IMG/VR virus record: IMGVR_UViG_2563366800_000002
Direction: 5' to 3' (one strand)
Length of the DNA: 15,788 nucleotides
DNA from: a virus
Taxonomy: Duplodnaviria; Heunggongvirae; Uroviricota; Caudoviricetes
In this document: positions 1 through 8,816 of the stretch, piece by piece
How the letters are laid out: each line of letters begins with the position of its first letter
Position numbering within the stretch: position 1 is the first letter of the stretch
Notes under the pieces: model-generated
The model's input: only the letters and a program-made list of their open reading frames with translations
Database searches by the model: none
Told to the model about the DNA's origin: nothing
Translations under genes and position numbers: made by a program

Positions 1-1224
1 ATGGCTGGCACAAACAAACTGAGCGACAAAAAGCTAAAAGCATTGCTGGGTTCTGAGCGTGAAGCGCCGATCATGATTGCCGATGGTGAGGGGCTAAGCG
101 TTAAGGTCTCGAAGCAAGGTAACGTTAGCTGGGTATTTTCATACCGGTTGGGAGGAAGGGGTAGCAAACTCGAACGTTTAACGCTTGGCCGTTACCCTGA
201 TATGCCGCTAAAACTTGCGCGAGAAAAGCGGGAACAGTGTCGCCAGTGGCTGGCTGGTGGGCTTGATCCGAAAACTGAGATTGAGCTGAGCACAGAAGAA
301 ACGCTTAAGCCTGTAACGGTTAAAGACGCCCTGGAATATTGGTTGGTGAATTACGCCAGGAGAAAGCGCAGTGATGAGGCGTTGGTGAGGGCGCAGCTAC
401 GCAAGCATATTTACCCGCGACTTGGTCGTTATCCGATCACCAGATGTGAAACCCGCCATTGGGTGGCCTGTTTTGACGAAATAAACCAGACTAAACCCAT
501 GACCGCCGGCCGCATGTTCCAGATTTCTAAACAGGCGTTACGTTTCTGCAAGGTTCGCCGTTATGCTGCCAGTGATGCTCTGGCCTTTCTCACCATTCAG
601 GATGTAGGCCAGCCATCTGGTCAACGTGATCGCGTATTGTCAGATAGCGAGCTGGCTGATGTGTGGCGCTGTACAGATAGCGATGATCAGCAGCCGTATT
701 ATTCACGTCTGCTCAAAATGCTGGTGCTTTTTGGTGCGCGAACGATGGAAGTTCGCCTTTCTCGATGGTCAGAGTGGGATTTTACATCGTGGATTTGGAC
801 TGTACCGAAAGAGCATAGCAAAACCAGAGAGAAAATCGTGAGGTCGATACCTGAAGCTATACGCCCGTGGCTGGAAGAGTTAAAGCGCGAGACAGGGAAA
901 ACAGGTTTGTTACTGGGCGAAGATCGTACCCGTCAGGCTGTATCATTGAAAGGGCGCAGGCTTTTTAAAGATTTTCACCATAACGAGCCGTGGACACTTC
1001 ACGATCTGCGTCGGACGTTTTCTACGGGGCTAAACAATATGGGTATAGCACCGCATATAGTCGAGCTGCTGTTGGGCCATGCCTTGCCGGGAGTTATGGC
1101 GATTTATAACCGTAGTCTTTACTTACCGGAGAAGCTGGACGCGCTGAACAAGTGGTATGACCGCTTAGAACTTCTCGCGGGTAATCACTCTAATATCGTT
1201 ATTTTAAAGGCTGGTGAAAAATGA
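1..1224 (+). CDS. int: Tyrosine site-specific integrase, P4-type
   Basis: 407-aa ORF. C-terminal catalytic region has HDLRRTF, LLGH and the AIYNR tyrosine typical of tyrosine recombinases; N-terminal region resembles the arm-binding domain of P4-like integrases. Gene sits at the island edge. Confidence 0.9.
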   Translation: MAGTNKLSDKKLKALLGSEREAPIMIADGEGLSVKVSKQGNVSWVFSYRLGGRGSKLERLTLGRYPDMPLKLAREKREQCRQWLAGGLDPKTEIELSTEETLKPVTVKDALEYWLVNYARRKRSDEALVRAQLRKHIYPRLGRYPITRCETRHWVACFDEINQTKPMTAGRMFQISKQALRFCKVRRYAASDALAFLTIQDVGQPSGQRDRVLSDSELADVWRCTDSDDQQPYYSRLLKMLVLFGARTMEVRLSRWSEWDFTSWIWTVPKEHSKTREKIVRSIPEAIRPWLEELKRETGKTGLLLGEDRTRQAVSLKGRRLFKDFHHNEPWTLHDLRRTFSTGLNNMGIAPHIVELLLGHALPGVMAIYNRSLYLPEKLDALNKWYDRLELLAGNHSNIVILKAGEK

Positions 1225-2024
1225 GAATTAGCCACAAAAAAGATTTGCCAACATGGTTTGATTTAGATAACTACACTCAATTTATTGGCATGTCAGATAA
1301 AGACTTATTTTATCAGTTGGTTGTTAGATATGACATGCTTGAAAACTTCTATCGATATGGCGGGTCTTTTTATAATGAACCTCTTACAAATAACGATGAA
1401 GTAGGAAGGATACTTGGAAATGGCGCGGTCGCTAATGCGATTGATAGAGCTACGTACTTCTATGATGCGTTTAAACTTCCTATTAAAAGAGAAGGTGTTT
1501 TGTCTGGTGGGGTTGCGTTACGACCAATGTCCATTGAAGACTTTATTTATATGAAAGATGCTGTAGATAATTATATGGAAAATAATTTTACGGGAACGGC
1601 TGAAAATTTAGTTTACCATTCATTTACAAGTGTTAGCTCATTTTTGGAACCAAATGACCTTTTTATTAAAGTTGATTTGTCACGCCCGGATGATTTATTG
1701 ATTGATGTGTTTAAAAAAAACCTCAAGAATTGGCGTGAGGAATTAAAAATAAAAGAAAAGGAAAAAACATACCAGTCATGGGAAACAATTAAAAAAAAGG
1801 TATACGATTATTCACTTTTCCCCGTAGTTGATTTGATGATCTGGGCTAAATCTCGCGGGGCATGCGTCACCAATGGCGTGCTTGCTGTGGCTGTGTTTCC
1901 GAACGGAGAGTATGACTCAACGCAGATAGCGCAAACCGTAAAGCCAAATATAGAAAAAATCTTCTCAATTTCTTCTATAGAAAAAATCAGGTCAGAACTT
2001 CAGGATAGAAAAATTCTTCCTTAA
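1221..2024 (+). CDS. Hypothetical protein, AT-rich orphan cargo gene (function unknown)
   Basis: 267-aa ORF whose ATG (1221) overlaps the integrase TGA (ATGA). Hand counts on three 60-nt lines give 23 to 38% GC, against 57% for a line in int. Lys/Asn/Asp/Tyr-rich protein with no motif I recognise. Confidence 0.6.
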   Translation: MRISHKKDLPTWFDLDNYTQFIGMSDKDLFYQLVVRYDMLENFYRYGGSFYNEPLTNNDEVGRILGNGAVANAIDRATYFYDAFKLPIKREGVLSGGVALRPMSIEDFIYMKDAVDNYMENNFTGTAENLVYHSFTSVSSFLEPNDLFIKVDLSRPDDLLIDVFKKNLKNWREELKIKEKEKTYQSWETIKKKVYDYSLFPVVDLMIWAKSRGACVTNGVLAVAVFPNGEYDSTQIAQTVKPNIEKIFSISSIEKIRSELQDRKILP

Positions 2025-2119
2025 TCTTGGTGGTCAAAACAATTTAATTTTCGTCTAGTGTGACATCCAATCACAAGGATAACAATAGCCCCCACAAACT
2101 TAGAAACAGTGGAGGCAAC

Positions 2120-2404
2120 ATGCAAATTATCACCTTTACCCCGCCAAATCCTGAACAACGCCGCACCATTCTGGAGGAGTACGGCTTCAAGTTCGATCGC
2201 CGAATCCGCGAAGATGAATGCAGCGAGATCACCAGTCTTTCTCGTTCGAGCCGCTGGAAGATGGAACAGCAGGGGCGCTTCCCGCCGCGCTGTCACTTTG
2301 GCCGCAACAGCTGTGCCTGGCTTCTTTCGGATGTGCTCTGGTGGGTTCGTAATCCGCCTGCCGTGGAAAACGTCAATAACCCGTACAGCCGCAAATCTGC
2401 TTAA
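2120..2404 (+). CDS. alpA: AlpA-family transcriptional regulator (phage/island excision-type regulator)
   Basis: GGAGG at 2111-2115 then ATG at 2120. The 94-aa product has the AlpA-like helix-turn-helix pattern (ITSLSRSSRWKMEQQGRFPP ... AWLLSDVLWWVRN). The ORF-track start at 2060 lacks an RBS. Confidence 0.75.
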   Translation: MQIITFTPPNPEQRRTILEEYGFKFDRRIREDECSEITSLSRSSRWKMEQQGRFPPRCHFGRNSCAWLLSDVLWWVRNPPAVENVNNPYSRKSA

Positions 2405-2424
2405 TTAACCACAGGTAATCAGAG

Positions 2425-3108
2425 ATGAAAAATATTAATGCCCTTAACGGGCAGGGATTCGCTCACCCTGTTGCCAGTAAAAGCGATATTAGCGTGCAGC
2501 TTAAACAGCTTCCTGCCGTCGAATTTCACGGGCAACGCGTGGTGACGTTCGCAATGATTGATACCGCGCACCAGCGACCTAAAGACACGGCTAAAAAGAC
2601 TTTTCAGCGTAATCGCACTCGCTTCATTGATGGTGAGGACTTTTTTATTGTCGGCGCGTCAGAGGTCGAATGGGGAGGGGCTGGATATTTAGACAGGGGC
2701 ATTAAACGCCCTGGCAAAAAAATGAACAGTCCGATACGTGGCCGCGTAACACTGATTACGGAATCAGGCTATCTGCTGCTGACCAAACCGTTTAACGATG
2801 ATTTGGCCTGGCAGGTACAGCGCCAGCTCGTGAAAACTTATTTCCGTTGCCCGGAGTTTGTCACTTTCCATCATGTGGATCTGCCGTCGCTCGAAGAACT
2901 GATCGCCATGCCGGTTACTGATGCGCAAAACGCCGTGACTCGTGCGGACAAGCATTCTAAGCAGTTTCATGGCTCACAGGGCAGTAATGGAATGAATCTC
3001 CGCAAGAAGGAACTCAAAGTTCTGCGTCCGGCGGTACGGCTGGTAGATGCGATGGGGCAGATTGATTTCGATAAATATGAGTGGGAGGCGGCACATGATC
3101 GCGCATAA
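2425..3108 (+). CDS. ORF6N-domain protein (antirepressor-like DNA-binding protein)
   Basis: 227-aa ORF. N-terminal segment (FHGQRVVTF..IDTAH...DTAKKTFQRNRTRFIDGEDFFIV ... GRVTLITESGYLLLTKPFNDDLAWQVQRQLVKTYF) fits the ORF6N pattern as recalled from memory. Confidence 0.65.
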   Translation: MKNINALNGQGFAHPVASKSDISVQLKQLPAVEFHGQRVVTFAMIDTAHQRPKDTAKKTFQRNRTRFIDGEDFFIVGASEVEWGGAGYLDRGIKRPGKKMNSPIRGRVTLITESGYLLLTKPFNDDLAWQVQRQLVKTYFRCPEFVTFHHVDLPSLEELIAMPVTDAQNAVTRADKHSKQFHGSQGSNGMNLRKKELKVLRPAVRLVDAMGQIDFDKYEWEAAHDRA

Positions 3109-3225
3109 AACAAAGGCGACCGGGGGCGGTCGCCAATGGGAAAACACTAAACATAAGCCCGAACATCATAGCGATTTGCTGGCTGGTGGGCAATGTGATC
3201 AGTGTGCTGGCTTGCTGGTGGGCTG

Positions 3226-3408
3226 TCAGCCTTTGGGTTCTATGCCTTCTTTGCGTAGCTTATCACGACAAGCATTTTTTACCCATGAGCTGAAATTACC
3301 AGGCCCTGCAACTTCGTTAATTTGTTGCAACAATGTGTCTTCGAAGCGGATGTTTTTCTTTGTGCTGCCGGAGCGATCAAATTTTGGTTTCACATTTTCT
3401 TCTTGCAT
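3226..3408 (-). CDS. YlcI/YnfO-like small ribbon-helix-helix-type protein, candidate repressor
   Basis: 60-aa ORF on the minus strand with KNIRFEDTLLQQINEVAG..GNFSSWVKNACRDKL, matching the YlcI/YnfO signature as recalled. GGTGG lies 9 nt upstream of the ATG. Divergent from the primase operon. Confidence 0.6.
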   Translation of the reverse strand: MQEENVKPKFDRSGSTKKNIRFEDTLLQQINEVAGPGNFSSWVKNACRDKLRKEGIEPKG

Positions 3409-3454
3409 TGGTACGTACCACCGTTATAAACTGAAATCAAATGGTACGTACCAC
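3409..3454. promoter_or_regulatory. Two copies of a 13-bp palindrome-containing repeat TGGTACGTACCAC (3409-3421 and 3442-3454) in the divergent promoter region; candidate operator
   Basis: Exact direct repeat, 33 bp centre to centre; the GGTACGTACC core is a perfect palindrome. Abuts the start of the minus-strand gene and lies about 100 bp upstream of the + strand operon. Confidence 0.5.
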
Positions 3455-3483
3455 ATTAAAAATACGCAACCATTAAATACAGC

Positions 3484-3518
3484 GAAGCCCGGCAGTGCGG
3501 GAACACTAACCGGGCTTC
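3484..3518 (+). other. Leader hairpin: 9-bp perfect inverted repeat GAAGCCCGG / CCGGGCTTC with a 17-nt loop, upstream of the first operon gene
   Basis: Read directly from the sequence. Lies between the operator repeats and the ATG at 3554; not followed by a T-run. Confidence 0.4.
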
Positions 3519-3553
3519 TAACCACCAACGATAACGAGAGTATCGAGGCAGCT

Positions 3554-3757
3554 ATGAGAAATCATACCATACACCCGCAAGGGCGGGACTCGTACAACCT
3601 GAATAAATACATCTGGCGTTTTATCGCCCTGAGCACGGCACAACCGCGCGTGATTCACATCGTGGCCACCAGCGAACAGGAAGCACGCCAGCAATCCCCG
3701 GCTGGCTGCGTGATGGTATTCGCCGCCCGTATTCGTCAGGGGGTGTGCCATGCCTGA
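3554..3757 (+). CDS. Small protein, possible Icd-like host cell division inhibitor; first gene of the primase operon
   Basis: GAGG 5 nt upstream of ATG 3554. The 67-aa product (MRNHTIHPQGRDSYNLNKYIWRFIAL...VMVFAARIRQG) resembles Icd-like proteins of P4-family prophages from memory only. Its end overlaps the next ORF start. Confidence 0.45.
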   Translation: MRNHTIHPQGRDSYNLNKYIWRFIALSTAQPRVIHIVATSEQEARQQSPAGCVMVFAARIRQGVCHA

Positions 3758-4070
3758 TATGTCAAATTACCAGTACCTGATTAATCCGCATTTTAACTGT
3801 GAGCATGATATTGCTAAAAAGGTTTATTCCGCTGCGGATGGGGCTACTGACAATATATCAATGGGTATTGCGTCAATTGGTAGCCTGATGTGGCATGCGT
3901 CAGAAAATGAGGAATATGACGAAAAGGCTATGCGCATTGATATGGGTAATATCGGTTTGTTACTGGCAATGCTTGGGCAGTTTGATATTTCGTTACGGTG
4001 CACCATTGAAAATGCCACAGATGCATTAAATGCCATAAAGAAAGCGAATACTGATTCAAATCGGGGATAA
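3750..4070 (+). CDS. Hypothetical small protein (positional analogue of P4 epsilon)
   Basis: 106-aa ORF whose ATG overlaps the upstream stop by 8 nt. No recognisable motif. Confidence 0.45.
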   Translation: MPDMSNYQYLINPHFNCEHDIAKKVYSAADGATDNISMGIASIGSLMWHASENEEYDEKAMRIDMGNIGLLLAMLGQFDISLRCTIENATDALNAIKKANTDSNRG

Positions 4071-4076
4071 ATAATC

Positions 4077-4376
4077 ATGAGAACATATTTATCTGGCTTG
4101 ACTGCCAGCGGTTATGCACACCCCAAAATTATCCCCGGCGCTATTTATTGGGATAAGAACGGCAACAGAGTAACAGTAAAATCGATAATGTTTGACCGTG
4201 TGTATTTTATTCGTGATGGCTATTCATTTCATAGCTCGCTGAACGTGGAGATCTTTATTTGCAGATTCCGGCGGGAAATCCCGCCTTCCAGAAATAACCA
4301 TGTGTCATGTATGGATGTTGATAAAAAACTACAGGAACTGAAAAACATGATTGCCGCGTGGAGAGAGCAGAAATGA
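4077..4376 (+). CDS. Hypothetical small protein, translationally coupled to the primase gene
   Basis: 99-aa ORF. Its TGA (4374-4376) overlaps the primase ATG (4373-4375) as ATGA. Confidence 0.45.
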   Translation: MRTYLSGLTASGYAHPKIIPGAIYWDKNGNRVTVKSIMFDRVYFIRDGYSFHSSLNVEIFICRFRREIPPSRNNHVSCMDVDKKLQELKNMIAAWREQK

Positions 4377-6496
4377 AAAAAGCGCCAAATTTAAAACACC
4401 AGCCACGTGACAAAATGACGGAAGTCATCATTTTTGCGGGTAGTGATGCGTGGGCACATGCGAATCAGTGGCAGGAACAGGACGGGCGACTGGCTGGCGA
4501 TAACGTGCCTCCTGTCTGGCTTGGAGAGCAACAACTTGCCGAACTGGACAACCTGCAAATCGTACCGGACGGACGCTATCGCGTGCGTCTCTATCAGGCG
4601 GGGTTATTGCGTCCGGGGCTTGTTAATACCATCGGGCAGAAACTGGCAGCGGCAGGTGTCAGGGATGCTGATTATTATCCTGAAGGAATGCACAGCCAGA
4701 AACGGGAGAACTGGCGCGAATATCTGGAACGTGAACGGGCAGAGCAGGCGGAAAAGAAAAAGGTAGTTGAACTGCCTGTAAAGAAAAAAGAGCCATGCTA
4801 TCAGGATGATGAATTAAAGCCCCGCGTTGAAAGTCGCGTCGATGGTGTTTTCTGGGTAACGCCCAAAGTGGATAAGCAGTCAGGCGAAATTATCCGGCCT
4901 GAGACGTGGTTATGTTCTCCGCTTGAACTACTGGGAACGGGGACGATCGGTAAAGAGCATTACCGCGTGATGCGCTGGAAAAAATTAGCAAACCATGAAG
5001 TCATCACAATGGCGATCCCGTGTGGTGGCATTGGCGACCGTGACGGCTGGCGGTTGCTTAAAGATCACGGGCTGAATGTGACAACAAACGGCAAATACAG
5101 GGCTATCCTGGCTGACTGGATGCAGTTAAGCGGAAGCCATGAGGAATGGCAGTTAAGCACAACAACGGGCTGGCATTTTGGCGCGTACATCATGCCGGAC
5201 GGTTCAATCATTGGTGATTCTGAAAAACCGATCCTGTTTACCGGAAAAAGTGCCGCTGTTAATGGCTATTCGGTTGCGGGTACGGCGGAGGGCTGGCGCG
5301 ACAGCGTGGCGCGGCTGGCTGGTGGCAATCCGTCCATGATGCTGGGTGTTGCCACGTCACTGGCAGCACCTTTGATTGGCCTTGTTGGTGCTGACGGCTT
5401 CGGGGTACATCTTTTCGAACAGTCATCGGCAGGGAAAACCACCACGCAGAACATCGCTTCAAGTTTATGGGGAGAGCCGGACGCGCAACGGCTGACCTGG
5501 TACGGAACGGCGTTAGGTATCGCCAACGAGGCCGAAGCACACAACGACGGGCTGTTACCCCTGGATGAAATAGGCCAGGCCGGAAACGCGCGGGAAGTGT
5601 CCACGTCAGCCTATACGCTGTTTAACGGTTCGGGGAAATTACAGGGGGCGAAGGACGGCGGCAACAGGGAGATCAAACACTGGCGCACGGTGGCAATCAG
5701 CACCGGAGAAATGGATGTTGAGACATTCCTCAAAAGTGAGGGGGTAAAAGTCAAAGCAGGCCAGCTTGTCCGTCTGCTTAACGTACCGATGGAGAAAGCC
5801 ACGCAATTTCACGAATACAGCACCGGAAAGGCGCACGCAGACGCGTTAAAGGATGCCTGGACTGCAAATCACGGGGCGGCGGGTCGTGAGTGGGTTAAAT
5901 GGCTGGCAGACCACCAGCAGGAGGCAAAGGACACGGTAAGGGAATGCCGCGAACGGTGGCACAACCTGATACCGGAGAGCTACGGCGAGCAGGTCCACCG
6001 CGTGGGGGAACGTTTCGCCATACTGGAGGCTGCGCTTGTGCTTTCCGGTCATGTAACTGGCTGGGCCGCGCAGGAATGCCGGGACGCAATACAGCATAAC
6101 TTTAATGCCTGGGTGAAGGAGTTCGGCACGGGTAACAGGGAATTTAAACAGATGGTTGAACAGGCTGAGGCGTTTTTGTCGTCGTTCGGGTTCAGTCGAT
6201 ACCTTCCTTACCCAAACAGTGATGAGCGTGATTTACCGATTAAAGACCTTGCCGGATACAGAAAGGGGAGTATCAGAAATGAAGATGATGAGTTCCGCTT
6301 TTACACGTTTCCTCATGTGTTTGAGGGTGAGATAGCACAGGGATTTAATCCGTCTCACTTTGCCCGCGCGTTGAGTGCTGCCGGAATGCTGGAAGCGGGT
6401 AACGATCGCCGTTACAAGAAAAAGGCGCTCGGCAAAATTGGGGGGAAGCAGCATGTTTTTTACGTGCTGATGTTCCAGCCTGAAGCAGAAGATTAA
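4373..6496 (+). CDS. Primase/helicase-type replication initiator (P4 alpha-like)
   Basis: About 707 aa from ATG 4373 (the track's 4358 is a GTG five codons upstream). Walker A-like SSAGKTTTQNIASSLWG in the central region; followed directly by an iteron array. Confidence 0.85.
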   Translation: MKKAPNLKHQPRDKMTEVIIFAGSDAWAHANQWQEQDGRLAGDNVPPVWLGEQQLAELDNLQIVPDGRYRVRLYQAGLLRPGLVNTIGQKLAAAGVRDADYYPEGMHSQKRENWREYLERERAEQAEKKKVVELPVKKKEPCYQDDELKPRVESRVDGVFWVTPKVDKQSGEIIRPETWLCSPLELLGTGTIGKEHYRVMRWKKLANHEVITMAIPCGGIGDRDGWRLLKDHGLNVTTNGKYRAILADWMQLSGSHEEWQLSTTTGWHFGAYIMPDGSIIGDSEKPILFTGKSAAVNGYSVAGTAEGWRDSVARLAGGNPSMMLGVATSLAAPLIGLVGADGFGVHLFEQSSAGKTTTQNIASSLWGEPDAQRLTWYGTALGIANEAEAHNDGLLPLDEIGQAGNAREVSTSAYTLFNGSGKLQGAKDGGNREIKHWRTVAISTGEMDVETFLKSEGVKVKAGQLVRLLNVPMEKATQFHEYSTGKAHADALKDAWTANHGAAGREWVKWLADHQQEAKDTVRECRERWHNLIPESYGEQVHRVGERFAILEAALVLSGHVTGWAAQECRDAIQHNFNAWVKEFGTGNREFKQMVEQAEAFLSSFGFSRYLPYPNSDERDLPIKDLAGYRKGSIRNEDDEFRFYTFPHVFEGEIAQGFNPSHFARALSAAGMLEAGNDRRYKKKALGKIGGKQHVFYVLMFQPEAED

Positions 6497-6707: not shown

Positions 6708-7130
6708 ATGACAGCACAGATAGCAGCTTACGGGCGGCTGGTGGCTGACCCGCAGTTAAAGACCACCAGCAAGGGCACACAAATGGCTATGGCAAGCATG
6801 GCGGTCCCCCTGCCGTGCAATCAGGCAGATGACGGACAGGCGACGATGTGGTTATCCGTCCTGGCGTTTGGCAGACAGGCCGACGCACTGGCAAAACACC
6901 ACAAAGGCGAGCTGGTGAGCGTGGCGGGTAACATGCAGGTAAGCCAGTGGACAGGCCAGAACGGGGAAACGCGGCAGGGCTGGCAGGTTATCGCAGACAG
7001 CGTAATCAGTGCCAGAACGGCGCGACCTGGTGGCAAAAAAGGCCAGCAGGGTCAGGCTACTGACGCTCTAAATAGGGCTAAGCAACAGGCGGGGAATGAT
7101 GATCCATACGGGGATAACATACCCTTTTAG
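6708..7130 (+). CDS. ssb: Single-stranded DNA-binding protein (SSB-like)
   Basis: GGAGA RBS then ATG 6708. 140-aa product with a Gly/Gln-rich linker and an acidic C-terminal tip DDPYGDNIPF resembling the SSB DDDIPF tail. Confidence 0.7.
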   Translation: MTAQIAAYGRLVADPQLKTTSKGTQMAMASMAVPLPCNQADDGQATMWLSVLAFGRQADALAKHHKGELVSVAGNMQVSQWTGQNGETRQGWQVIADSVISARTARPGGKKGQQGQATDALNRAKQQAGNDDPYGDNIPF

Positions 7131-7147
7131 CGATAACAGGGGGATAC

Positions 7148-7396
7148 ATGCCAGTGACATTTGAAGAAGTTCAGCAACATAAAAAGTTTCATGGTATTGA
7201 TGATCTGGAAACCACGACAGCAAAAAAATATCGCCGTCTGCTTTCTTCCGATGCGTTATTTGTTGTGGATCATCATGATTTTCTGCGCAGCTCACTGACC
7301 GGGGAAATTTTCGCAACCAACCGTGAGCAGGTGGAAGCGATGATCGAATATTTGTGGAAAATAAGGCGCAGAATGCGCGATCCCGTGAAACAGTAA
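7148..7396 (+). CDS. Hypothetical small protein
   Basis: 82-aa ORF with a purine-rich RBS; last gene before a terminator. No recognisable motif. Confidence 0.4.
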   Translation: MPVTFEEVQQHKKFHGIDDLETTTAKKYRRLLSSDALFVVDHHDFLRSSLTGEIFATNREQVEAMIEYLWKIRRRMRDPVKQ

Positions 7397-7670: not shown

Positions 7671-8816
7671 ATGAAGAAATTAATCGAACTCCGCCAGCAA
7701 AAAAACGCCCTGAAAAACCAGATGCGATCCCTGCTGGAAAAAGCCGACAGTGAAAACCGCAGCCTGAACGATGACGAGGGCAAACAGTTTGATGAACTGC
7801 GTGCAAAAGCCGATTCCCTCGACACAGAAATTTCCCGTCTTGAAGCTGTTGCGGATGAAGAACGTAACCAGCCTGGTGTTTCCGTCGAAGAGAAAATCAC
7901 CAAAGATGAACTGCGCTCTTACATTCTGACCGGGGAAACCCGCAACCTGTCCGGCAGTGTCCCGGCTGATGGTGGCTATACCGTTATTCCCGAGCTGAAT
8001 AAAGAGATTATGCGCCAGCTTGCCGATGAATCGGTGATGCGCAAAATCTGTACCGTTAAAACCATTCACAGCAATGAATTTAAGCAACCGGTTTCCGCTG
8101 GTGGCGCGGTGGTTGAGCATGGCGAGGAAGGTGCGGCACGTAACCAGACGGCAACGCCGAAACTGAACGAAGTCAGCATCCGCCTGTATCCGATCTACGC
8201 TTACCCGAAAACCACTCAGGAAATTATCGATTTTTCCGAAGTCGATATTATGAGCTGGTTATCTTCTGAAATTGGCGACACTTTCGTTGATACCGAAGAA
8301 ACGGATCTGGTTTCCGGTGACGGCGAGAAAAAAGCTAAAGGTTTCCTGGCGTTCCCGCGCACTGCGGATAACGACAAAACCCGTCCTTTCGGTACGCTCC
8401 AGACGAAAAAAGTTACTGGCAGTCTCAGCGCCGACATGCTGATTGACCTGAAATTTACGCTGCGCAATAAGTACCGCAAAAAAGCTGTATGGGTGATGAA
8501 CTCAAATACAGCCGCCTCCGCACAAAAACTGAAAAATGCCACTGGTGATTACATCTGGCGCGATCGTTTACAGGCTGGTGATCCTGATTCTCTGCTGGGG
8601 CTTCCGGTTGAATATCTGGAATTTATGCCGGACGGTGTGATTGCAGTAGGTGACTTTAAGCGCGGTTATTTCATCGTTGACCATGAAACCGGTACGCGTA
8701 CCCGTCCGGACTTCAGCGAACCCGGATTCATTAACATCTATACCCAGAAATATCTGGGCGGTGGTGTGGTGGATTCGAACGCCATCAAGATTCTGGAAAT
8801 TCAGGCTGGTGAGTAA
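7671..8816 (+). CDS. Major capsid protein, HK97-like fold, with N-terminal coiled-coil scaffold-like domain
   Basis: 381-aa ORF. Charged, heptad-like N-terminus (first 70 aa) then a capsid-like body; followed by a strong terminator and a prohead protease gene. Confidence 0.8.
   Translation: MKKLIELRQQKNALKNQMRSLLEKADSENRSLNDDEGKQFDELRAKADSLDTEISRLEAVADEERNQPGVSVEEKITKDELRSYILTGETRNLSGSVPADGGYTVIPELNKEIMRQLADESVMRKICTVKTIHSNEFKQPVSAGGAVVEHGEEGAARNQTATPKLNEVSIRLYPIYAYPKTTQEIIDFSEVDIMSWLSSEIGDTFVDTEETDLVSGDGEKKAKGFLAFPRTADNDKTRPFGTLQTKKVTGSLSADMLIDLKFTLRNKYRKKAVWVMNSNTAASAQKLKNATGDYIWRDRLQAGDPDSLLGLPVEYLEFMPDGVIAVGDFKRGYFIVDHETGTRTRPDFSEPGFINIYTQKYLGGGVVDSNAIKILEIQAGE

Follow-up and report, generated by a model that had tools for sequence, protein, structure and literature searches.

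In the immI regions of P1 and P7 and in P4 immunity, pairing of an RNA at the ribosome-binding site (RBS) of a first open reading frame (ORF) controls the distal genes by polarity. SymR is a stable RNA that represses translation of symE, and it was abolished by silent changes in its TAGAAT hexamer, so that the -10 element was experimentally demonstrated to be required (Kawano, Aravind and Storz, 2007, PMC1891008). Here, we describe a region at positions 3,226-4,376 of a 15,788-nt stretch of viral DNA, the IMG/VR record IMGVR_UViG_2563366800_000002 (Caudoviricetes); the whole stretch is hereafter called the window, and all positions are given in its coordinates. The comparative analysis makes it probable that this region is a two-layer control module resembling immI of phage P22, which governs the operon of an icd-like gene, an orphan ORF (ORF106), a DUF4222 gene and a primase gene in a capsid-forming phage-inducible chromosomal island (cf-PICI). 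An E. coli relative is referred to as H1, and the comparison loci are designated by L and a number.

Based on its ORFs, the Pfam matches and the RefSeq annotation of H1, the window was identified as a cf-PICI satellite. Its genes run from an integrase through a DUF6387 gene, an AlpA-family gene and an ORF6N antirepressor-like gene to a YlcI/YnfO gene on the minus strand, and further along through the Icd-like gene, two small ORFs, the DUF927 primase and an SSB; a head and packaging set comprising major capsid protein, protease, portal, connector, HNH, TerS and TerL is also present. This gene content is that published for capsid-forming PICIs (10.1101/2022.09.08.507074). H1, located between yljB and clpS, was found to be 96.7% identical to positions 3100-4500 of the window and to have the same gene set.

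Upstream of the icd-like gene lies a 9-nt inverted repeat (3484-3492 and 3510-3518) with a 17-nt loop, the stem of which is extendable by AGTG/CACT. An earlier sequence-only reading of this DNA had described it as a hairpin with a 9-bp stem at 3484-3518 and had placed it in the operon leader, in parallel with termination in the P4 leader; the inverted repeat itself was confirmed, and the assignment to the plus strand was not upheld. In an alignment of 32 distinct sequences of the predicted antisense RNA (A3), RNAalifold gave a 5' stem-loop followed by a long terminator stem-loop, with 13 of the 23 pairs displaying compensatory changes, including five of the six pairs of the 5' stem-loop. Paired cells accounted for 96.9% of the total, as compared with 85.5% in column shuffles (none of 500 reached the observed value) and 31-47% when the pairing partners were slid by 1-3 columns. 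Since 111 of the 732 cells were G·U on the minus strand (A·C on the plus strand) and no cell was the opposite way, the structured RNA was placed on the minus strand, and we regard this test as decisive. The folded antisense RNA gave a minimum free energy of -36.5 kcal/mol (z -4.6). A tail following the hairpin was observed on the minus strand only, as U5-6 in many relatives and as UAUUUAA in the window, and the plus strand continues after the hairpin with TAACCACC, which is devoid of a T-run. On these grounds the hairpin is best described as the predicted terminator of a SymR/sar-like antisense RNA, not as a leader terminator.

The predicted cis-antisense RNA comprises about 80 nt of the minus strand, from an AGC 5' end at 3553, the last position before the icd-like ATG, to around 3473. 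Its 5' stem-loop (3521-3552), with an inner stem CGAUA/UAUCG (3545-3541 with 3533-3529), carries the anti-Shine-Dalgarno sequence, and its terminator stem-loop (3484-3518) consists of 9-10 bp plus an apical 4-bp GUGUU...CAC stem and is followed by the tail GCUGUAUUUAA at 3483-3473. The RNA is fully complementary to the leader of the operon, with the Shine-Dalgarno (SD) sequence GAGG at 3545-3548 included in the pairing region. The antisense promoter was predicted on the minus strand at 3561-3569 as an extended -10 element, TGgTATGAT, within codons 3-5 of the icd-like gene; its hexamer TATGAT (3566-3561) precedes A3553 by 7 nt, which is the geometry of SymR. All 32 sequences start with AGC and all 32 hold TAnnnT exactly 7 nt upstream, and the inner bases of the -10 element and the encoded amino acids vary among them. 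Just upstream of this promoter, codons 7-13 of the icd-like gene contain a small GC hairpin (3574-3590, CCCGC AAG GGCGGG), which is kept in the 'HPQGRD' subtype of Icd-like genes (the window, L002-L004, L016, L022, EcCICFT073 and UM146) and could reflect a coding constraint or be part of the promoter or of RNA control.

The kinship of this RNA was assessed with covariance models. In a permissive Rfam scan, symR (RF01809) matched the minus strand at 3553-3481 over its full-length model (1-77) with 31.4 bits (E 1e-3). Conversely, a covariance model, R1, built from A3 without SymR, scored 86 bits on the RNA of the window and matched the annotated E. coli K-12 symR (1836-1920) over the whole model and on the correct strand with 33.7 bits (E 3e-6 when 85 kb was searched, 1.5e-7 for 4 kb), so that the two matches are reciprocal and cover the two-hairpin fold. 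R1 also recognized sequences outside its build, namely L035 (87.6 bits), L027 (70.4) and L009 (61.3), and the satellites UM146 (76.7 bits), EcCICFT073 (63.9; E. coli CFT073, NC_004431.1, 1380769-1380851 on the minus strand) and the O157 PICI (49.6). The hairpin part of R1 further matched the annotated terminator of P22 sar (15.6 bits, E 0.007), the annotated promoter of which, Psar, lies within the first codons of ant. A blastn match led to a P22-like phage-plasmid, whose arc-ant spacer gave 40.1 bits with R1; this RNA would run antisense to ant, from a 5' end 6 nt into the ant gene. These matches to SymR, the arc-ant spacer and the sar terminator thus indicated that the module is P22 immI-like and not P4-like. 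In the phage-plasmid (L047, plasmid NZ_CP146567.1), the spacer RNA at 2504-2586 gave 21.8 bits with Rfam symR and was not reported by the Rfam sar model at E<=1, and the Rfam sar family seems, from this, to be too narrow.

The ORF behind the RNA cassette was shown to vary. Icd-like proteins of 58-95 aa are encoded there in some relatives; in L035 it is an Ash-domain protein with an Icd-like C-terminus, in Buttiauxella a 176-aa protein of no known function, and in Leminorella L036 a SymE toxin (PF08845, 8e-14). In the latter locus (Leminorella grimontii, NZ_AUUA01000012.1), roughly 200 nt before position 2501 of the locus, a YlcI-type repressor, operators (GGTAGGTACC / GGTACCTACC) and a SymR-like RNA precede the SymE-family gene, which, as judged from these matches, directly connects symE/symR with the cassette of the satellites. 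The O157 PICI, inside the large-terminase gene of a prophage of E. coli O157:H7 H6437 (L046, NZ_CP038339.1, 1448-7297), carries the same module of YlcI, operators, antisense RNA, icd-like gene, DUF4222 gene and primase with an operator allele of its own; such a helper-embedded configuration has been described (PMC10111431). Among 5426 complete E. coli genomes, the part of the query holding the RNA and the icd leader was found in 1473 (27%), including EcCICFT073, with up to 7 copies per genome, as against 71 of the same genomes for the full query including the operator allele of the window, and therefore the RNA cassette is conserved and the repressor/operator allele variable.

The transcriptional layer of the proposed module comprises paired palindromes facing the ylcI/ynfO gene. 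As the sequence-only reading had noticed, two exact copies lie 33 bp apart (start to start), and the repeat search placed these 13-nt copies of TGGTACGTACCAC at 3409-3421 (operator 1) and 3442-3454 (operator 2), each containing a perfect 12-bp palindrome, TGGTACGTACCA. With up to one mismatch, the 10-bp core GGTACGTACC occurs in the window only at these two sites, with 0.24 occurrences expected from shuffles. In 19 relatives, drawn from several genera, neither copy shows any change in the core, and the flanks vary; this conservation is a stronger argument for the palindromes than their rarity in the window. The predicted operon promoter, P_icd, spans 3403-3432 on the plus strand with a -35 element TTGCAT (3403-3408), an 18-nt spacer and a -10 element TAAACT (3427-3432), and would start transcription at around 3437-3440; TATAAA (3425-3430), with a 16-nt spacer, is an alternative -10 element. 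Alignment A1 shows no variation in TTGCAT, nor in the T, the A and the last T of the -10 element. Owing to these conserved hexamers, operator 1, which abuts the start codon of ylcI, is placed in the spacer of P_icd and operator 2 at around +3 to +15. In the other allele classes, including EcCICFT073, UM146 and the O157 PICI, TTGACG or TTGAAG is followed after 16-18 nt by TATAGT, TATACT or TTAAAT, and one palindrome again lies in the promoter spacer and the second just after the -10 element. A divergent promoter, P_ylcI, was predicted on the minus strand at 3441-3469 (-35 TTGCGT, 3469-3464; 17-nt spacer; -10 TACCAT, 3446-3441), where operator 2 overlaps its -10 element; GCAACC and the AT before operator 2 are kept in most, not all, relatives, and P_ylcI is the weakest of the three promoter predictions. 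The position of the operators inside overlapping divergent promoters, as in P22 immI, was conserved in all allele classes.

The minus-strand gene at 3226-3408 encodes a 60-aa protein, predicted here to be a ribbon-helix-helix repressor, and its earlier assignment to the YlcI/YnfO family was verified by scores above the curated cut-offs of PF13132 (DUF3950, 33 bits versus 25) and NF041551 (31.1 versus 30). YlcI-like proteins of 52-100% identity were found across Enterobacterales and at one Aliiglaciecola locus. Relatives were compared at 12 viral-contig and 28 genome loci, together with the more distant alleles of EcCICFT073, UM146 and the O157 PICI. Every locus that keeps the intergenic region holds a 10-bp element twice, at a distance of 33-35 bp, with the first copy abutting the ylcI ATG; in the distant Aliiglaciecola locus (L040) the copies are 30 bp apart. 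The operator sequence was found to co-vary with the predicted DNA-reading residues of YlcI, K17, N19 and R21 in the window, across at least eight allele classes in a set of about 45 relatives. The strand motif STKKNIRF accompanies GGTACGTACC (19 loci in Escherichia, Pantoea, Serratia, Xenorhabdus and others), STMKHIRF accompanies GGTA(AC/GT)TACC, STRRTIRF accompanies GGT(T/G)CGAACC, and ST(M/T)KNIRF accompanies GGTAGGTACC plus GGTA(A/C)CTACC. The more distant YlcI/YnfO alleles face unrelated palindromes at the same promoter positions, namely GGGCCACACC with the strand ALKARVP in EcCICFT073, GTGTT(C/T)AACAC (operator GTGTTCAACAC) with TVAARVP in UM146, the gene of which is absent from the RefSeq annotation, and CTGGAATCCAG with KLQARAP in the O157:H7 PICI, which is inserted in a prophage terminase gene. 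Between the window and H1, ylcI and the operators are identical and AlpA is only 47% identical. The operators thus track the YlcI allele and not AlpA, which indicates an allele-specific, probably ribbon-helix-helix, repressor, and the palindromes are most likely the operators of the divergent YlcI/YnfO protein. In this respect the sequence-only reading, which had proposed a divergent switch with the small minus-strand protein as its binder, was supported by the co-variation.

In Arc, Gln9, Asn11 and Arg13 are the base-contacting residues. An hhalign comparison of the YlcI alleles with Arc/Mnt (E 9e-4) aligned them in the register of the beta-strand and helix A, placing the variable residues 17 and 19 on Arc Q9 and N11 and the invariant R21 on Arc R13. 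The AlphaFold2 (AF2) monomer model was poor, with helices at 25-34 and 41-54 after an unstructured strand region and a confidence too low for a fold search. Pfam searches at E<=10 with nine YlcI members returned DUF3950 only, and a homologue-cluster search yielded only 6 clusters. Taken together with the co-variation, the alignment suggests that the YlcI dimer is probably an Arc-like ribbon-helix-helix protein.

Downstream of ylcI, a terminator scan detected a GC-rich hairpin on the minus strand at 3115-3134 followed by TTTGTTTTAT, a likely ylcI terminator that is also present in H1 despite different upstream genes. Between the ylcI stop codon and this hairpin lies a direct repeat, GCTGGCTGGTGGGC (3178-3191) and GCTTGCTGGTGGGC (3210-3223), with copies 32 bp apart, which is kept in H1; EcCICFT073 and UM146 have a second small minus-strand ORF downstream of ylcI instead. 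In UM146 (L045, NC_017632.1), RefSeq annotates a 187-aa plus-strand 'hypothetical protein' at 3359-3922, an ORF that is probably spurious, since the minus strand in the region of 3694-3873 encodes an unannotated YlcI/YnfO-family protein (NF041551, 59.7 bits) together with the second small ORF, which matches one in EcCICFT073. The Icd-like coding sequence (CDS) of UM146 is probably annotated too long at its 5' end.

The operon itself begins with the icd-like gene (3554-3757, 67 aa; NF033153, 71 bits; annotated in the RefSeq record of H1), the SD sequence of which is the GAGG noted above. ORF106 (3750-4070) follows in a variable slot, its ATG overlapping the icd stop by 8 nt, and the DUF4222 gene (4077-4376; PF13973, E 2.9e-17) overlaps with its stop codon the start of the DUF927 primase/helicase gene pri-rep (4373-6496; PF06048, 164 bits; annotated in H1) in an ATGA at 4373-4376. 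The overlaps and short gaps bear out the earlier description of three coupled small ORFs before the primase. That description had found no recognizable motif in the second and third of them, which holds for ORF106, with no match in Pfam, NCBIfam or PADLOC, and fails for 4077-4376 on account of DUF4222. The DUF4222 gene lies directly upstream of the primase and overlaps its start in the window, L002-L005, L008, L011, L012, EcCICFT073, UM146 and the O157 PICI, an arrangement suggestive of a conserved primase partner. ORF106 matches phrog_15327 (function unknown), and an exhaustive HMMER search returned 16 small nameless clusters among 1.84 billion representatives, which is a narrow distribution. 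Its AF2 model is a two-helix hairpin with a predicted local distance difference test (pLDDT) score of 81.6, for which Foldseek against PDB and BFVD gave nothing at E<=1e-3, only generic helical hairpins. The suggestion that these two distal ORFs serve helper hijacking was not sustained: no evidence links them to helper derepression, neither resembles P4 epsilon, DUF4222 accompanies the primase, and ORF106 is a helical-hairpin orphan; when every small ORF of the window was compared by BLASTP with those of the P4 left operon, epsilon among them, no similarity was detected.

For the Icd-like protein, the PHROG label 'transcriptional repressor' was considered as a guide to function and rejected, as it probably derives from an obsolete annotation of a P4 cI protein. 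The P4 genome (L043, NC_001609) indeed carries, at 8168-8584, an obsolete CDS named 'cI gene product, transcriptional repressor', whose C-terminal 65 aa are Icd-like (NF033153, 76 bits); the real CI RNA of P4 (Rfam C4) is located at 8420-8507.

The sequence comparison itself demonstrates the elements and their conservation, the strand of the RNA and its relationship to SymR and sar, and the co-variation of operators and protein. By analogy with Arc/Mnt, sar, SymR and C4/CI, we infer how binding, repression, translational block and polarity would operate in this module. In the quiescent island, YlcI-type dimers would occupy both GGTACGTACC operators, keeping P_icd off and autoregulating the repressor promoter, and different satellites would possess different matched repressor/operator alleles. 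In the post-transcriptional layer, the promoter in the first icd-like codons would fire backwards to yield the two-hairpin RNA of about 80 nt ending at the hairpin 3484-3518. Transcripts that escape repression would pair with this RNA across the SD sequence, leaving the first ORF untranslated, as with SymR and sar, and primase expression would be lowered by polarity because the four genes are translationally coupled. The operon would accordingly be expressed only when its transcription clearly exceeds the pool of antisense RNA. An override by helper-induced AlpA is conceivable, whereby AlpA might act through read-through from upstream or at P_icd.

Several observations weigh against this model. 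The antisense RNA, its ends and all three promoters are sequence predictions; a sigma-70 scan of the window with a stricter consensus listed none of the three promoters, the sites listed in the promoter and terminator scan were no more numerous than in shuffled sequence, and P_ylcI is not conserved in all relatives. The Rfam matches lie below the gathering cut-offs, with the 31.4 bits of symR set against 61 and the sar model (RF00262) reaching 17.7 bits, on the hairpin only, against 43. The U-tract of the window, UAUUUAA, is weak, and therefore read-through into ylcI would be possible. For the repressor, the ribbon-helix-helix fold is a prediction: the AF2 model has a pLDDT of 61, the hhalign probability is only 22%, and PDB sequence searches with the YlcI profile and the CFT073 allele gave no meaningful matches. 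A weak terminator-like site on the plus strand at 3214-3230 may limit read-through from alpA. Finally, the activator AlpA has been reported to be required for, and to be switched on by the helper in, the induction of Gram-negative PICIs, in which no repressor was found (PMC6092414).

Four other explanations were weighed against the two-layer module. It is barely credible that the hairpin terminates or attenuates transcription in the plus-strand leader and that P4-type immunity results from such early termination. The perfect inverted repeat in the window means that the hairpin folds in the plus-strand leader as well, and the layout resembles the P4 left operon, in which the first ORF is likewise Icd-like (76 bits); this much of the earlier parallel with P4 stood. 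The plus strand nevertheless has no T-run after the stem, and in the relatives its version contains A·C mismatches at the same 111 cells where the minus version keeps G·U. The P4-type immunity read into that parallel fell away, as the P4 leader gave C4 (74.9 bits), isrK (60.8) and c4-a1b1 (44.1) on the operon strand, none of the three was found in the window, where neither a C4-family RNA nor a1/b1-type targets appeared at the gathering cut-off or at E<=10, and R1 had no match in P4. It is somewhat less improbable, yet still very unlikely, that AlpA, a protein of the helper phage or a factor of the host is what binds the palindromes, or that these serve replication or packaging instead of transcription: AlpA is the only regulator experimentally shown in these elements (PMC6092414), and binding by YlcI is predicted, but the operators follow the YlcI allele even where AlpA diverges, co-vary at the predicted base-reading residues, and in each allele class are found where classic operators lie, in the spacer and at +1 of a conserved promoter.

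Two further readings accept the minus-strand RNA and differ as to its role. It is rather unlikely that the structure merely forms the 5' leader of a longer ylcI mRNA starting inside the icd-like gene, with the hairpin stabilizing or attenuating it. The structure does lie on the ylcI strand, 65 nt upstream of the ylcI ATG, its U-tract in the window is weak, the predicted P_ylcI is not universal, and L027 and L035 have an extra same-strand gene between the RNA and ylcI. Against it stand the U5-6 runs after the hairpin in many relatives, the homologues SymR (77 nt) and sar (69 nt), which are discrete RNAs with terminators, and the occurrence of the cassette without ylcI behind it at K-12 symE and in the P22-like arc-ant spacer; a ylcI leader and a discrete RNA can coexist through partial read-through. 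The least improbable of the four, though still unlikely as a replacement for a primase gate, is that of a type I toxin-antitoxin pair of the addiction or abortive kind, made up of the RNA and the icd-like gene, in which a toxic division inhibitor would be controlled. Icd of P1 is a cell-division inhibitor, and SymR, to which the RNA is kin, is a type I antitoxin; the same cassette precedes the SymE toxin in L036. The first ORF is, however, tightly coupled to the replication genes, and SymR is stable and not a classical addiction antitoxin (PMC1891008). The toxin-antitoxin interpretation and the two-layer module are not exclusive, and the Icd-like protein would be a putative toxin, given only its homology to Icd (NF033153) and that of the RNA to SymR.

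Beyond the control region, the ORF6N-domain gene (2425-3108, PF10543) directly after alpA matches several PHROG anti-repressor families and is not present in H1; as a candidate for an action on the repressor of a helper phage, it is likelier than ORF106 and the DUF4222 gene. An accessory DUF6387 gene (1221-2024) between int and alpA, whose start overlaps the integrase stop, is also absent from H1 and gave no defence-system match in a PADLOC search. Between the primase and the capsid gene, an SSB gene and an 82-aa ORF of phrog_1957 (function unknown) occupy 6708-7396, and both are also found in H1. The Rfam int-alpA RNA motif was not found in the window at 1-3300 at E<=0.1, where an Rfam E-value scan returned nothing, and a Photorhabdus relative (L023) carries the motif above threshold at 3332-3398. 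At the gathering cut-off, Rfam detected nothing in the control region of the window and 18 relatives, the only hits being tRNA-Sec (two loci) and this int-alpA RNA elsewhere in the loci. A blastn search against 50,697 phage records gave only two short matches.

In the searched literature, SymR/SymE was not mentioned together with PICIs or satellites, and YlcI/YnfO and Icd-like genes were encountered only in lists of accessory genes. The components are individually of known kinds, and their combination before the replication operon of Gram-negative PICIs and cf-PICIs appears to be undescribed in the searchable literature, as also appear the allele-specific repressor/operator pairs and the link among SymR, sar and the satellite RNA. 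These islands are common and widely spread, and the analysis proposes for them a concrete, testable repressor with matched operators plus an RNA gate on the replication operon, both layers being present in the experimentally tractable EcCICFT073. The repressor and the antisense RNA may constitute the so-far unidentified 'off switch' of these widespread satellites. Thereby, the 'accessory' genes Icd-like and YlcI/YnfO become the centre of a control region. If the operators act like immunity types, this would explain the coexistence of several related satellites in one genome. The analysis further links three antisense systems (SymR, P22 sar and the satellite RNA) that are kept apart in Rfam without a shared clan. 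We tentatively extend this to a broader proposal, to which we give slightly less than even credence: that the three RNAs make up one superfamily, in which a portable cassette, fired from a promoter within the opening codons of its target, has been placed before unrelated first genes (ant, symE, icd-like and ash-like), and that the YlcI/operator pairs together with the RNA are the missing allele-specific immunity system of Gram-negative PICIs and cf-PICIs.

Comparison with the known systems set the module apart from each of them in part. As in P4, P1 and P7, small ORFs precede the primase and the first ORF is Icd-like; the RNAs of P1, P7 and P4, however, lie on the operon strand, arise by processing of the leader and are members of Rfam C4 having a1/b1 target sites, whereas the RNA predicted here is a true cis-antisense RNA of another family. 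The divergence of the repressor gene from a xis/pri-rep operon and the allelic diversity between islands recall the Stl/Rpr master repressors of the Gram-positive PICIs, the Staphylococcus aureus pathogenicity islands (SaPIs) (PMC6092414), in which, in contrast, Stl repressors are larger helix-turn-helix proteins inactivated by helper-phage proteins, and the Gram-negative PICIs have been reported to be induced via AlpA. With SymR, the RNA shares the 5' AGYCAU start (AGUCAUAACUG in SymR), two hairpins, a UGAUUAG linker (UGGUUAG-like), the apical GUGUUGGCGCAC stem and an identical promoter geometry of TAGAAT, 7 nt, then A; it differs in that the target is Icd-like, with SymE in this position in L036, that this ORF heads a four-gene operon, and that a dedicated YlcI-type repressor would take the place that LexA holds for symE. 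The closest agreement was with P22 immI, which likewise combines a small Arc-like repressor (the ribbon-helix-helix proteins Mnt and Arc in P22, predicted here) having operators inside overlapping divergent promoters (Pant/Pmnt in P22) with an antisense RNA of about 70-80 nt whose promoter lies in the first codons of its target, whose 5' end lies at the start codon, which is complementary to the RBS and whose terminator lies just upstream. The terminator hairpins of the two RNAs are also alike in sequence (GAAGCCC...GUUnnnGCA...GGGCUUC). Unlike immI, the present module targets an Icd-like ORF and a satellite primase operon instead of an antirepressor, has one repressor gene, divergent like mnt, with none inside the operon like arc, and resides in a PICI rather than a phage.

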